Under the pieces are notes generated by a model. The model saw only the letters and a program-made list of their open reading frames with translations. It searched no databases and was not told the origin of the DNA. A stretch of 64,000 bases of DNA from Escherichia coli (GTDB lineage: Bacteria > Pseudomonadota > Gammaproteobacteria > Enterobacterales > Enterobacteriaceae): NCBI RefSeq assembly GCF_002854065.1, contig NZ_CP024147.1, one strand, 5' to 3'. The position numbers and the translations under genes are program-made. Below, one piece after another: positions 35,056 through 39,895 of this stretch. Position 1 is the first letter of the stretch. Each line of letters begins with the position of its first letter.

Positions 35056-36333
35056 ATGAAAACAACAGCAAAGCTGTCGTTCATGATGTTTGTTGAATGG
35101 TTTATCTGGGGCGCGTGGTTTGTGCCATTGTGGTTGTGGTTAAGTAAAAGCGGTTTTAGTGCCGGAGAAATTGGCTGGTCGTATGCCTGTACCGCCATTG
35201 CGGCGATCCTGTCGCCAATTCTGGTTGGCTCCATCACTGACCGCTTTTTCTCGGCGCAAAAAGTGCTGGCGGTATTGATGTTCGCAGGCGCGCTGCTGAT
35301 GTATTTCGCTGCGCAACAGACCACTTTTGCCGGGTTCTTTCCGTTACTGCTGGCTTACTCTCTAACCTATATGCCGACCATTGCGCTGACTAACAGCATC
35401 GCTTTTGCCAACGTGCCGGATGTGGAGCGTGATTTCCCGCGCATTCGTGTGATGGGCACTATCGGCTGGATTGCCTCCGGTCTGGCATGTGGTTTCTTGC
35501 CGCAAATACTGGGGTATGCCGATATCTCACCGACTAACATCCCGCTGCTGATTACCGCCGGAAGTTCTGCTCTGCTCGGTGTGTTTGCGTTTTTCCTGCC
35601 CGACACGCCACCAAAAAGCACCGGCAAAATGGATATTAAAGTCATGCTCGGCCTGGATGCGCTGATCCTACTGCGCGATAAAAACTTCCTCGTCTTTTTC
35701 TTCTGTTCATTCCTGTTTGCGATGCCACTGGCGTTCTATTACATCTTTGCCAACGGTTATCTGACCGAAGTCGGCATGAAAAATGCCACCGGCTGGATGA
35801 CGCTCGGCCAGTTCTCTGAAATATTCTTTATGCTGGCATTACCGTTTTTCACTAAACGCTTTGGTATCAAAAAGGTATTATTGCTTGGTCTGGTCACCGC
35901 TGCGATCCGCTATGGCTTCTTTATTTACGGTAGTGCGGATGAATATTTCACCTACGCGTTACTGTTCCTCGGTATTTTGCTTCACGGCGTAAGTTACGAT
36001 TTTTACTACGTTACCGCTTACATCTATGTCGATAAAAAAGCCCCCGTGCATATGCGTACCGCCGCGCAGGGGCTGATCACGCTCTGCTGCCAGGGCTTCG
36101 GCAGTTTGCTCGGCTATCGTCTTGGCGGTGTGATGATGGAAAAGATGTTCGCTTATCAGGAACCGGTAAACGGACTGACTTTCAACTGGTCCGGGATGTG
36201 GACTTTTGGCGCGGTGATGATTGCCATTATCGCCGTGCTGTTCATGATTTTTTTCCGCGAATCCGACAACGAAATTACGGCTATCAAGGTCGATGATCGC
36301 GATATTGCGTTGACACAAGGGGAAGTTAAATGA
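35056..36333 (+). CDS. yegT: MFS nucleoside:H+ symporter-family transporter YegT
   Basis: 425-aa 12-TM ORF with NupG/XapB-like features. Confidence 0.85.
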   Translation: MKTTAKLSFMMFVEWFIWGAWFVPLWLWLSKSGFSAGEIGWSYACTAIAAILSPILVGSITDRFFSAQKVLAVLMFAGALLMYFAAQQTTFAGFFPLLLAYSLTYMPTIALTNSIAFANVPDVERDFPRIRVMGTIGWIASGLACGFLPQILGYADISPTNIPLLITAGSSALLGVFAFFLPDTPPKSTGKMDIKVMLGLDALILLRDKNFLVFFFCSFLFAMPLAFYYIFANGYLTEVGMKNATGWMTLGQFSEIFFMLALPFFTKRFGIKKVLLLGLVTAAIRYGFFIYGSADEYFTYALLFLGILLHGVSYDFYYVTAYIYVDKKAPVHMRTAAQGLITLCCQGFGSLLGYRLGGVMMEKMFAYQEPVNGLTFNWSGMWTFGAVMIAIIAVLFMIFFRESDNEITAIKVDDRDIALTQGEVK

Positions 36334-37334
36334 AAACAGAACGTATTCTCGGTGCTCTTTATGGGCAGGCGTTAGGGGATGCGATGGGGATGCCCTCCGA
36401 GCTTTGGCCACGCAGCCGCGTTAAAGCACACTTTGGCTGGATTGACCGTTTTCTGCCTGGACCAAAGGAGAATAACGCGGCCTGTTATTTTAACCGCGCC
36501 GAATTCACCGACGATACCTCGATGGCGCTGTGTCTGGCGGATGCGTTGCTGGAACGTAAAGGCAAGATCGATCCGGATCTGATTGGGCGTAATATCCTCG
36601 ACTGGGCGCTGCGTTTCGACGCCTTCAACAAAAACGTGCTAGGTCCGACCTCGAAGATTGCGCTTAACGCCATTCGCGACGGTAAACCCGTTGCTGAACT
36701 GGAAAACAACGGCGTAACCAACGGCGCAGCGATGCGCGTCTCGCCATTAGGTTGTTTGCTTCCGGCGCGCGATGTTGATTCTTTTATTGATGATGTGGCG
36801 CTGGCGTCGAGCCCGACCCATAAATCCGATCTGGCAGTTGCAGGTGCGGTAGTCATCGCATGGGCGATTTCTCGTGCTATTGACGGAGAAAGCTGGTCAG
36901 CGATTGTTGATTCACTGCCTTCAATTGCGCGACATGCCCAGCAAAAACGCACCACCACGTTCAGCGCCTCACTGGCGGCGCGGCTGGAGATTGCGCTGAA
37001 AATTGTGCGCAATGCCGACGGCACCGAATCCGCCAGCGAACAGCTTTACCAGGTCGTTGGCGCAGGTACCAGCACTATTGAGTCCGTTCCGTGCGCCATT
37101 GCGCTGGTTGAACTGGCACAAACCGACCCGAACCGTTGCGCCGTCCTCTGCGCTAACCTTGGCGGCGATACAGACACCATCGGTGCTATGGCGACGGCAA
37201 TCTGCGGCGCGTTGCATGGCATTAACGCTATCGATCCTGCGTTAAAGGCGGAGCTGGATGCGGTAAATCAGCTTGATTTCAACCGCTATGCCACAGCGCT
37301 GGCGAAATATCGTCAACAACGGGAGGCGGTATGA
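36330..37334 (+). CDS. yegU: ADP-ribosylglycohydrolase-family protein YegU
   Basis: 334-aa ORF; overlaps yegT stop and yegV start (operon). Confidence 0.8.
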   Translation: MKTERILGALYGQALGDAMGMPSELWPRSRVKAHFGWIDRFLPGPKENNAACYFNRAEFTDDTSMALCLADALLERKGKIDPDLIGRNILDWALRFDAFNKNVLGPTSKIALNAIRDGKPVAELENNGVTNGAAMRVSPLGCLLPARDVDSFIDDVALASSPTHKSDLAVAGAVVIAWAISRAIDGESWSAIVDSLPSIARHAQQKRTTTFSASLAARLEIALKIVRNADGTESASEQLYQVVGAGTSTIESVPCAIALVELAQTDPNRCAVLCANLGGDTDTIGAMATAICGALHGINAIDPALKAELDAVNQLDFNRYATALAKYRQQREAV

Positions 37335-38296
37335 GCGGCGCTCGATTACACACGCTGCTGCCTGAATTAACCACGCGTCAGTCGGTGATGGTCGTCGGCG
37401 CGGCGGTCATTGACGTGATCGCCGACGCTTATGCCCTCCCCTGGCGTGGGTGCGATATCGAACTGAAACAGCAGAGCGTTAACGTTGGCGGCTGCGCACT
37501 GAATATTGCCGTGGCGTTAAAGCGCCTCGGCATCGAAGCGGGTAATGCCTTGCCGCTCGGTCAGGGGGTATGGGCGGAGATTATTCGCAACCGGATGGCG
37601 AAAGAGGGGTTAATCAGCCTGATCGATAACGCCGAAGGCGATAACGGCTGGTGTCTGGCGCTGGTTGAGCCGGATGGCGAACGTACTTTTATGTCATTCA
37701 GCGGTGTGGAAAATCAGTGGAATCGCCAGTGGCTGGCGCGATTAACCGTTGCGCCTGGCAGCCTGCTCTATTTTTCCGGTTATCAACTGGCCTCGCCCTG
37801 CGGCGAATTGTTAGTGGAATGGCTGGAAGAGCTGCAAGACGTGACGCCGTTTATCGATTTTGGCCCACGTATTGGCGATATCCCGGATGCATTACTGGCG
37901 CGGATCATGGCCTGTCGCCCTTTAGTGTCGCTCAATCGTCAAGAGGCTGAGATTGCCGCCGAACGTTTTGCTTTATCCGCAGAGATAACAACACTTGGCA
38001 AGCAATGGCAGGAGAAATTTGCCGCGCCGTTGATCGTTCGTCTCGATAAAGAGGGTGCATGGTATTTCAGCAACGATGCTTCTGGCTGCATTCCGGCATT
38101 TCCAACGCAAGTTGTCGACACCATTGGGGCGGGCGACAGTCATGCAGGTGGCGTACTTGCCGGGCTGGCCTCTGGTCTGCCACTGGCGGATGCCGTATTA
38201 CTGGGCAATGCAGTGGCGTCGTGGGTTGTCGGGCATCGGGGCGGTGATTGTGCGCCAACGCGCGAGGAACTACTCCTCGCACACAAAAACGTATAG
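37331..38296 (+). CDS. yegV: PfkB-family carbohydrate/nucleoside kinase YegV
   Basis: 321-aa ORF with PfkB signature near the C-terminus (DTIGAGDSHAGGVLAGL). Confidence 0.8.
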   Translation: MSGARLHTLLPELTTRQSVMVVGAAVIDVIADAYALPWRGCDIELKQQSVNVGGCALNIAVALKRLGIEAGNALPLGQGVWAEIIRNRMAKEGLISLIDNAEGDNGWCLALVEPDGERTFMSFSGVENQWNRQWLARLTVAPGSLLYFSGYQLASPCGELLVEWLEELQDVTPFIDFGPRIGDIPDALLARIMACRPLVSLNRQEAEIAAERFALSAEITTLGKQWQEKFAAPLIVRLDKEGAWYFSNDASGCIPAFPTQVVDTIGAGDSHAGGVLAGLASGLPLADAVLLGNAVASWVVGHRGGDCAPTREELLLAHKNV

Positions 38297-39016: not shown

Positions 39017-39067
39017 TTGTCTTTTTCCTGCCAGGAAGTCTGGTGGGAGTATATCACTGCTTCTTAT

Positions 39068-39895
39068 TTAAGGCGTTTCTTTAATCCCATCAACGAATCC
39101 CTGCAACTCCTCCACCGTGCCATTAAACACATTAAAATCCACCGGACCATTGATGCCATCTACCTGTCCACGGTCGGAATGCTGCCAGAAGCGCCAGGCC
39201 ATTCCGTCATTGTCCGGACGACGTTGATAATAGTGAGCCACCCACCACGGATATTCATTAAAATAGCCCGCCAGATTCGTGTGATAAAAAACGGCTCCTG
39301 AGTAAATAATCGGCTTTTTTCCCGTGCGTTTTTCTACCATTTTTAGCCACTGACTTACCCGCTTGCGTAATTCTTTTGCCGATAATTTTCCCCGTTCTTC
39401 TACGTCCAGCACGGCAGGGAAATCGCCTTGTGAGAAATCTACCGTTTGCAGAAATAATCGCGCCTGAACCGGTGCTGCTACCGACGGGGAAAAATAATGA
39501 TACGCCCCGCGCAGCAGGCCATTTTCGCGGCTTAGTTGCCAGTTACGCGAAAAATACGGGTCCACCAGCTTTTCGCCTTCCGTCGCCTTAATAAAAGCAA
39601 ACTGTAAGCGGATACCGTTGTCGCGCATTTTTGCCACCCGCTGCCAGTCGATCCGCTCCTGCCAGCGAGAAACATCTATTCCGTGAATGGTGTAACTGGC
39701 AGGAATGCGAATAGCGAAAGATTTAACCGGGCGATAACCGTAGAAATGGATGTAGTCTGTAATCTGAACTGCTGTCGAATAGAAAAAATTCACCGTCTGA
39801 CGCGGATAAATTGCAACGATGGAAATTAGCCCAAGAGCGCATAATAGAGAGGTGAGTTTTTTTCGACTGGTAATTCTTAGCTGCATTGGTTTCAT
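39068..39895 (-). CDS. yegX: Glycoside hydrolase family 25 (lysozyme-like) protein YegX
   Basis: 275-aa ORF with N-terminal signal/anchor and GH25-like core (GIDVSRWQERIDWQRV...). Confidence 0.75.
   Translation of the reverse strand: MKPMQLRITSRKKLTSLLCALGLISIVAIYPRQTVNFFYSTAVQITDYIHFYGYRPVKSFAIRIPASYTIHGIDVSRWQERIDWQRVAKMRDNGIRLQFAFIKATEGEKLVDPYFSRNWQLSRENGLLRGAYHYFSPSVAAPVQARLFLQTVDFSQGDFPAVLDVEERGKLSAKELRKRVSQWLKMVEKRTGKKPIIYSGAVFYHTNLAGYFNEYPWWVAHYYQRRPDNDGMAWRFWQHSDRGQVDGINGPVDFNVFNGTVEELQGFVDGIKETP

Follow-up and report, generated by a model that had tools for sequence, protein, structure and literature searches.

Positions 35056-39895 of the DNA analyzed here, a 64,000-nucleotide window of Escherichia coli contig NZ_CP024147.1, encode the genes yegT, yegU, yegV, yegW, and yegX (Table 1). 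This is an already known locus, consisting of the core-genome E. coli yegTUV operon, its repressor YegW (now GgaR), and the unrelated neighbor yegX, and the region is two unrelated things: a module made up of yegTUV and yegW, and the separate gene yegX. The stretch matches E. coli CUWW06 with 100% identity, and of the 5426 complete E. coli genomes 5424 contain the region, with the annotation yegT/U/V/W/X. It is flanked by gatZY and fbaB on one side and by thiD, thiM (with its thiamine pyrophosphate (TPP) riboswitch), and rcnRA on the other.

Families were checked by Pfam and NCBIfam profile searches, and the gene identities that an initial annotation had read from the sequence alone hold for all five open reading frames (ORFs). 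The folds of the encoded proteins are unambiguous from sequence, and none of the function-specific (equivalog) models in NCBIfam is reached by YegU, YegV, YegW, or YegX. The annotation had also described yegTUV as a tight operon, which it is: at both junctions, yegT/yegU and yegU/yegV, the stop and start codons overlap in the 4 nt ATGA, with a purine-rich Shine-Dalgarno-like sequence before each, and the three genes are transcribed as a single 3.3-kb mRNA (PMC10819704). Its description of the module as poorly characterized fits the chemistry of YegU and YegV but not the regulator, published as GgaR in 2024, or the transporter, whose structure appeared in 2025. The annotation accurately recognizes a locus that was already known and in part studied; it is a re-identification, not a discovery. 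The single transcript, the ∼30-fold repression by GgaR, its two binding regions, its release by ADP-glucose, and the negative binding and uptake results for YegT had all been published; new here are the pairing and fusion of YegU and YegV, the swapping of their transporters, the operator motif, and the retention of catalytic residues.

Table 1. Features of the locus and its surroundings, in window positions; yegT to yegW are from the ORF listing of positions 33000-42000 (aa, amino acids)
Feature	Position	Strand	Length	Description
yegT	35056-36333	+	425 aa	NHS-family MFS H+ symporter
yegU	36330-37334	+	334 aa	ADP-ribosylglycohydrolase-fold metal-dependent hydrolase
yegV	37331-38296	+	321 aa	ribokinase-like PfkB kinase
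yegW (ggaR)	38270-39016	-	248 aa	GntR/UTRA (HutC-type) repressor
yegX	39068-39886	-	272 aa	GH25 muramidase-like protein (RefSeq start)
sigma-70-like promoter match	34972..35001	+		TTCACC, 18 nt, TATTAT; consensus match, the only one in the fbaB/yegT spacer
candidate GgaR operator 1	34983..35002	+		GGTATTTAAAAGGTATTATT; GGTATT repeat, 11-bp spacing, overlaps the -10-like hexamer
candidate GgaR operator 2	35863..35882	+		GGTATCAAAAAGGTATTATT; inside yegT, ORF nt 808-827
fbaB	33747-34871			class I aldolase, DeoC family (PF01791), divergent neighbor of yegT
TPP riboswitch	41571-41667	-		upstream of thiM; Rfam RF00059, 71.2 bits; known element

The YegU-YegV pair, its transporters, and its active sites

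The initial annotation had proposed a neighborhood and co-occurrence analysis, and carrying it out reveals a conserved core with a changing transporter. YegU was searched against one representative per 50%-identity cluster of ∼15 billion proteins, which gave 237 clusters at E < 1e-30; with 90%-identity clusters the hits were all enterobacterial and almost identical, and the exhaustive search of representatives was needed to obtain diversity. Forty diverse full-length YegU relatives were aligned, the alignment was used to pull 79 loci from GTDB species-representative genomes, and the ORFs called in these loci were classified by BLASTP and clustering. A YegU homologue was called in 75 loci, of which 66 have a YegV homologue within 3 kb of it and 52 have a GntR/UTRA gene. 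YegU and YegV are the conserved core across the 79 species. The operons are minimal, with a transporter, the YegU and YegV genes, and sometimes that of YegW; besides the regulator, no other enzyme recurs. No glycogen-synthesis gene is among the recurrent neighbor families identified in the 79 loci, and no ADP-ribosyltransferase family recurs among the shared neighbors there, the nonrecurrent neighbors being unannotated.

In addition to lying side by side, the two proteins are found as a single chain. The top 150 cluster representatives include 13 long YegU relatives of 599-758 aa, and nine of the ten that were scanned are fusions of an ADP-ribosylglycohydrolase (ARH) domain and a PfkB domain, with both domain orders represented. 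Over 280 residues, the kinase half of one fusion shares 31% identity with YegV, and both have the LVEPDGERTF motif. Fusion of the two domains in both orientations is strong evidence that YegU and YegV act on one pathway. The tenth long relative, P0160 (692 aa), is a tandem duplication of the ARH domain and not an ARH-PfkB fusion.

The neighbors of the fusion proteins were considered as a guide to the substrate. In a metagenomic locus (L085), an isochorismatase-family cysteine hydrolase encoded at 1555-2136 is translationally coupled, with an NCS1 permease on one side and an ARH-PfkB fusion on the other, and it may act on the aglycone. Its matches to nicotinamidase, biuret hydrolase, and YcaC are of similar strength, and each falls far short of the cut-off. 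Near another fusion there is a His-phosphatase closest to the alpha-ribazole phosphatase CobC, below cut-off and on the opposite strand, and the context of a third fusion locus is uninformative. We rejected naming the substrate from these neighbors, as the isochorismatase and CobC-like matches are too weak.

YegT is a member of the NHS family (nucleoside:H+ symporters), as annotated (PF03825 Nuc_H_symport, E 3.5e-184; TIGR00889, 654.9 bits against a cut-off of 446.1), but the canonical nucleosides that the label "nucleoside-type" calls to mind are, according to published work, neither bound nor carried. The crystal structure of YegT has been solved at 3.1 Å, isothermal titration calorimetry gave zero signal for uridine, adenosine, cytidine, and guanosine, and the residues with which NupG contacts uridine are not conserved in YegT (Xiao et al. 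2025, PMC11979927). An independent study reported no YegT uptake of uridine, cytidine, xanthosine, or gemcitabine (PMC11241209). One paper names YegT a "redundant nucleoside transporter," without data. The published binding and uptake panels were made up of canonical nucleosides, xanthosine, and gemcitabine.

The transporter beside the YegU-YegV pair is interchangeable across families. YegT-like NHS transporters occur upstream of yegU in 32 loci, all of them gamma-proteobacterial; PnuC-family proteins (∼230 aa) are encoded directly after yegV in 17 loci of Lachnospiraceae, Clostridium, Epulopiscium, and relatives; and NCS1 permeases lie between or after the two genes in 14 loci of Bacillaceae, lactobacilli, Leuconostoc, Dialister, Aeromonas, and Parasutterella. 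Vibrio has an MFS_1 transporter after yegV, and one fusion locus has an ECF-type ABC transporter upstream of the fusion gene. With 95.8 bits against a cut-off of 42.45, the PnuC-type member exceeds the threshold of the nicotinamide-riboside-transporter model in NCBIfam, and PnuC carries nicotinamide riboside, not its nucleotide. The partner transporter families carry nucleosides, nucleobases, and vitamin-type ribosides.

YegU matches PF03747 (ADP_ribosyl_GH, E 1.8e-66) over residues 8-302 and 285 of the 287 profile positions. ARH3 residues E41, T76-D77-D78, and D314/D316/T317 align to YegU E23, T60-D61-D62, and D280/D282/T283, and the catalytic and metal motifs (E23, T60-D61-D62-T63, D280/D282/T283) are conserved: in the 40 diverse relatives D61 and D282 are invariant, and the other metal and catalytic residues are at least 90% conserved. 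The ARH3 loop residues F143, S148, and Y149, which we take to stack on the adenine and contact the diphosphate, align to N126, a three-residue deletion, and V129, and an aligned histidine, H164 in YegU, is invariant across the relatives. Among solved structures, the YegU-family profile is closest to the uncharacterized archaeal protein MJ1187 (E 1e-63), with ARH3, DraG, and other ADP-ribosyl hydrolases at ∼1e-32; a full-text search for MJ1187 found only one irrelevant paper. The best NCBIfam matches of YegU are DraG (79.7 bits against a cut-off of 337) and Tri1 (68.7 against 490), both far below threshold. The proximity to MJ1187, the intact catalytic motifs, and the missing adenine-loop residues together mark the YegU family as a distinct branch, which is catalytically competent as judged by its motifs and which probably operates without ADP recognition.

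Some YegU homologues stand apart from the pair. In Edwardsiella and Serratia (L031, L034, L035, L041), a homologue of 63-65% identity occurs without YegV or YegT and adjoins a GntR/UTRA gene of 37-41% identity, the two lying between genes that resemble, by eye, purB and phoPQ-ycfD; the same flanks are seen in Rahnella (L033).

YegV is a PfkB-family protein (PF00294, E 8.3e-57) in which D28, G53-G54, N58, and G266-A-G-D269 are conserved; G53, G54, G266, G268, and D269, which form the GG dipeptide and the GAGD anion hole with the catalytic Asp, are invariant in 37 relatives. The solved structures nearest the YegV-family profile are ribokinases, with E. coli RbsK at E 9e-38 and others to ∼1e-30, and the top 13 are so named. 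By the equivalog models YegV nevertheless falls outside the ribokinases (TIGR02152, 82.1 bits against a cut-off of 299.65; NF008353, 60.6 against 341), and it scores 19.6 bits against a cut-off of 540 with the pseudouridine-kinase model. In the alignment RbsK D16, G41-G42, N46, and catalytic D255 correspond to YegV D28, G53-G54, N58, and D269, while three of the seven residues that we take to be the ribose contacts of RbsK, N14, K43, and E143, are replaced family-wide, by V26, C55, and A154 in YegV. From this residue pattern, in which the grip on the 2',3'-diol would be kept and the free anomeric hydroxyl would not be enclosed, we infer that YegV may be a riboside kinase that phosphorylates O5'. 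In one paper YegV is an in-vitro substrate of the Prc protease, a result dismissed by its authors, YegV being cytoplasmic.

GgaR and candidate operators

YegW has the HutC-subfamily architecture, as initially annotated, with a GntR domain (PF00392, E 3.1e-16) and a UTRA domain (PF07702, E 2.3e-36). Its renaming as GgaR dates from 2024, when it was described as a repressor with yegTUV as its single target (Saito et al. 2024, PMC10819704). Chromatin immunoprecipitation with microarray detection (ChIP-chip) showed binding at a single genomic target in the fbaB/yegT spacer and, more weakly, within yegT (nt 571-869); the yegTUV mRNA, undetectable in the wild type, rises ∼30-fold upon deletion of yegW; and in gel shifts ADP-glucose at 10-100 μM frees the protein from DNA, which ADP and glucose do not (PMC10819704). 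In the same work deletion of ggaR roughly doubled glycogen at 6 h and slowed growth on glucose minimal medium. What had prompted the link to ADP-glucose was a list of Keio mutants whose staining on ADP-glucose plates indicates a glycogen deficiency, in which yegV is one entry. A synonymous yegW mutation also appears in an evolution study.

No operator motif for GgaR is defined in that paper, and we propose the tandem GGTATT repeat as a candidate. The repeat is present upstream of yegT, where it overlaps the promoter-like match that falls in the published 190-bp GgaR-binding probe, and again inside yegT, within the weaker binding probe-5 (nt 571-869; PMC10819704), so that both published binding regions contain a GGTATT-N5-GGTATT element. 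The pattern GGTAT-N4-AAGGTATTATT occurs twice in the 64-kb window against 0.03 expected. Inverse TACCTT/TACCT elements, read from the sequence, follow operator 1 at ∼35023 and ∼35034. Of 33 gamma-proteobacterial loci, ranging from Escherichia to Vibrio, 32 have the repeat upstream of yegT, and examples of the paired sites in other loci are 4666-4685 with 5540-5559 in L002 and 4654-4673 with 5528-5547 in L003. The intragenic copy is kept in many species and decayed in several, mainly Enterobacter and Cedecea; because it lies in coding sequence, its conservation is partly a matter of coding constraint.

At the other end of the module, yegV and yegW are convergent, as the initial annotation stated, and their coding 3' ends overlap by 27 nt (38270-38296), a feature that Salmonella and Klebsiella share. 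Between the two genes no terminator-like site was detected, and the pair is listed among convergent transcript-overlap "excludons" (PMC12288877). Given the overlap and this listing, derepressed yegTUV transcription may run antisense into ggaR and interfere with it.

A possible riboside pathway and its rivals

We lean slightly toward reading yegTUV as an inducible route for a non-canonical riboside. Together with yegW, the operon would be a catabolic or salvage module, complete in itself and normally silent, whose non-canonical ribofuranoside substrate YegT would bring in by proton symport and YegV would phosphorylate on the ribosyl 5-OH; YegU, with two metal ions, would then hydrolyze the bond between the ribose C1 and the aglycone to give ribose-5-phosphate and free aglycone. 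GgaR would sit on the tandem GGTATT repeats over the promoter and on the weaker copy inside yegT until freed by a phosphorylated, sugar-nucleotide-like effector. A riboside-type substrate is suggested by the interchangeable transporters, the PnuC-type member that passes its cut-off, the minimal operons, and the indifference of YegT to canonical nucleosides; both the nature of the substrate and the kinase-then-hydrolase order are what we infer. The substrate could be a pyridine riboside, for example that of nicotinamide or nicotinate; other candidates are alpha-ribosides and modified nucleosides, dihydrouridine among them. There is a precedent in Bacteroidetes, where ADP-ribosylglycohydrolases stand beside ribokinases in ribose-utilization loci. 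The initial annotation regarded the substrate of the module as not established, and this still stands: the literature on YegU and YegV yields no biochemical assignment, full-text searches found no published reaction for either protein, and they found no papers linking an ADP-ribosylglycohydrolase with PfkB, ribokinase, riboside, PnuC, or a fusion. A 2025 preprint on the E. coli "unknome" likewise keeps YegV (b2100) as an uncharacterized sugar kinase, EC 2.7.1.-.

Several points weigh against this reading. The riboside role of YegU and YegV is a proposal, and to our knowledge the substrates of the characterized ARH-family enzymes are all ADP-ribosyl conjugates, with no small riboside phosphate among them. 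Cleavage of a riboside gives no obvious explanation for the only effector and phenotype proposed so far, ADP-glucose and glycogen accumulation. Neither fusion nor synteny settles which step comes first, and the ribokinase-like profile of YegV would suit phosphorylation of free ribose after hydrolysis equally well. The weak hints to the substrate also diverge, PnuC and the isochorismatase-family neighbor pointing to nicotinamide and the ECF transporter and CobC-like phosphatase to alpha-ribazole. Finally, the 79 loci were not drawn at random: they are the ones that scored best among more than 521 hits.

The order of the steps is where the nearest rival departs from this reading: YegU could cleave the unphosphorylated riboside, with YegV acting as a dedicated ribokinase that captures the free ribose. 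The top 13 structural matches of the YegV-family profile are the ribokinases that such a scheme calls for, the Bacteroidetes loci pair ribokinases with ADP-ribosylglycohydrolases or nucleoside hydrolases, and fusion and synteny are neutral on order. We nevertheless consider it unlikely. Three of the seven residues taken as ribose contacts in RbsK (N14, K43, and E143) are replaced throughout the family, YegV scores 82 bits against the 299.65-bit ribokinase cut-off, and E. coli already has RbsK. In the known substrates of ARH1, ARH3, and DraG the ribose undergoing cleavage has a 5''-phosphate, and the effector of a HutC/UTRA repressor is usually a phosphorylated intermediate. The sole ligand reported for GgaR is a phosphorylated sugar nucleotide (PMC10819704). 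A different proposal is that YegTUV act on or supply ADP-glucose, which GgaR senses as it controls glycogen accumulation (Saito et al. 2024). The release of GgaR by 10-100 μM ADP-glucose and not by ADP or glucose, the doubled glycogen at 6 h and slow growth on glucose minimal medium of the ggaR deletion, and the listing of the yegV deletion among glycogen-deficient mutants on ADP-glucose plates all speak for it. However, raising glucose from 0.25% to 1% induces yegTUV only ∼3-fold, against the ∼30-fold derepression in the ggaR mutant, the effector panel did not include ADP-ribose, ribose-5-phosphate, other nucleoside diphosphate sugars, or riboside phosphates, and the authors, who show no activity of YegT, YegU, or YegV on ADP-glucose, call the function of YegTUV still unknown (PMC10819704). 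The PnuC-family and NCS1 base/vitamin permeases that serve the same pair are unsuited to a dianionic nucleotide sugar, glycogen-synthesis genes are missing from the recurrent neighbor families identified in the 79 loci, and a glycohydrolase would be expected to destroy an ADP-sugar, not to make one. We regard this proposal as improbable; ADP-glucose may mimic the true effector of GgaR, and the glycogen phenotype may be indirect.

YegU could also be a de-ADP-ribosylase of macromolecules (protein or nucleic acid) that has the transporter and the kinase as incidental neighbors. Membership in PF03747 with an intact ARH active site fits this, as do best NCBIfam matches to DraG and Tri1 that fall far below cut-off, but those same scores (79.7 bits against 337 and 68.7 against 490) also tell against it, YegU is translationally coupled to the transporter and the kinase and repeatedly fused to the latter, and the residues aligned to the adenine-binding loop of ARH3 are missing. 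The shared neighbors include no recurrent ADP-ribosyltransferase family, the nonrecurrent ones being unannotated. We think this role very improbable. More tentatively than the riboside route itself, we entertain a wider version of it, in which the whole YegU family, MJ1187 included, would be an ARH-fold branch unrelated to ADP-ribosylation and would form with YegV a widespread, gut-enriched pathway that cleaves the 5'-phosphate of a modified or vitamin-related riboside, releasing ribose-5-phosphate and the aglycone. ADP-glucose would then be a mere mimic of the true GgaR effector, and nicotinamide or nicotinate riboside, a cobamide-derived alpha-riboside, and dihydrouridine would be the candidate substrates.

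The riboside route has its closest parallel in the pseudouridine module of E. coli, which consists of the transporter PsuT/YeiM, the PfkB kinase PsuK/YeiC, and the pseudouridine-5'-phosphate glycosidase PsuG/YeiN. Both would combine a nucleoside-type transporter, a PfkB kinase, and a glycosidase (proposed in the case of YegU) to yield ribose-5-phosphate and a base, and the two are small operons, psu being dedicated, and yegTUV proposed to be dedicated, to a nucleoside outside the reach of the general enzymes. They differ in that YegU has the ARH (PF03747) fold and is not of the YeiN family, YegT is of the NHS and not the CNT family, YegV is far from the pseudouridine-kinase cut-off (19.6 bits against 540), and the order of steps in yegTUV is a proposed one. 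As YegU is no YeiN homologue, it would at most work like a pseudouridine-type module without being a member of one. With ARH1, ARH3, DraG, and Tri1, YegU shares the PF03747 fold and the TDDT, GGDTDT, and N-terminal Glu motifs, but its family stands apart in sequence, lacks the residues of the ARH3 adenine-stacking loop, and is in operons with, or fused to, a kinase and small-molecule transporters in place of being paired with ADP-ribosyltransferases. The Bacteroidetes rus loci are alike in joining one or more ribokinases and a permease to variable ribose-releasing enzymes, among them ADP-ribosylglycohydrolases and nucleoside hydrolases; they differ in being SusC/D-type, polysaccharide-utilization-like, and ribose-induced, with ARH members that are themselves uncharacterized, whereas the yegTUV type has just three genes in a minimal cytoplasmic operon that a GntR protein represses. 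YegT shares family and fold with the characterized NHS transporters NupG and XapB (root-mean-square deviation of 1.57 Å to NupG) and has the GxxxD protonation motif in transmembrane helix 10, but it is only 27% identical to NupG, with the uridine-contacting residues not conserved (PMC11979927).

Even in the best-studied bacterium some core-genome operons still await a function, and yegTUV is one of them; its YegU-YegV pair also occurs widely in gut Firmicutes, lactobacilli, Vibrio, and others. To assign its substrate would be to provide a first role in the metabolism of small molecules for the ADP-ribosylglycohydrolase fold, name a nutrient scavenged by gut bacteria, test whether the link of GgaR to ADP-glucose and glycogen is direct or a side effect, and correct misleading "ADP-ribosylglycohydrolase" and "nucleoside permease" annotations in thousands of genomes. 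The fusions, the swapping of transporters, the intact and ADP-independent-looking active site, and the conserved operator make the YegU-YegV question directly testable.

YegX and neighboring genes

The initial annotation listed yegX alongside the module, and synteny led us to reject it as a member. The order fbaB, yegT, yegU, yegV, yegW, thiD, thiM is common to Salmonella, Klebsiella, Citrobacter, Enterobacter, Kluyvera, Cedecea, and others, and in the sampled loci of these genera no GH25 gene lies between yegW and thiD; it is found there in E. coli only. YegX homologues above 60% identity occur only in Escherichia and Shigella (E. albertii, 90%); after these, the closest named relatives of full length (45-55% identity) come from Sphingobacteriia (Solitalea, Pedobacter, and Pseudopedobacter). 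The yegX segment has a G+C content of 47.5-48.5%, against 54-58% for yegUV and thiD. This pattern suggests a lineage-specific horizontal acquisition with no functional tie to yegTUVW. That yegX lies outside any prophage had been annotated correctly: it sits between yegW and thiD with no phage genes flanking it, its best phage matches are at most 41% identical, and we rejected a prophage remnant or phage endolysin on these grounds. Many Shigella copies of yegX are truncated.

The protein matches PF01183 (Glyco_hydro_25) with E 3.6e-54 over 180 of 180 profile positions, has the GIDVS and LDVEE catalytic motifs (the N-terminal Asp and DxE, read from the translation), and has 2wag as its best solved relative (E 6e-33). 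It is like the GH25 muramidases (Cellosyl, Cpl-1-type endolysins, and the B. anthracis GH25 enzyme) in its full-length PF01183 domain and its GIDVS...DVE motifs, and unlike them in being chromosomal and non-prophage, with an N-terminal hydrophobic segment in place of cell-wall-binding repeats. The earlier description of YegX as secreted rests on this one strongly hydrophobic segment (residues 10-28, with a basic stretch before it). No signal-peptidase site is evident by eye, which makes a membrane-anchored periplasmic protein at least as likely as a secreted one; YegX is probably a membrane-anchored periplasmic GH25 muramidase. The end at 39895 that the initial annotation gave for yegX corresponds to an upstream in-frame ATG (275 aa), with the RefSeq start 9 bases downstream. 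In the literature only gene-list mentions of yegX were found.

Of the surrounding genes, the minus-strand thiM, thiD, yegX (where present), and yegW are closely spaced (38270-41667), with gaps of 55 and 51 nt in E. coli and a thiD-yegW gap of 35 nt in Salmonella (L002 7941-10307). From this arrangement, ggaR might be partly co-transcribed with the thiMD operon that the TPP riboswitch controls. On the other flank, fbaB is not under GgaR control in E. coli (PMC10819704). It adjoins yegT in all 22 loci in which an FbaB homologue was found, all of them in Enterobacteriaceae, and a metagenomic PfkB-ARH fusion operon also has a DeoC-family aldolase (L083 10150-10875).

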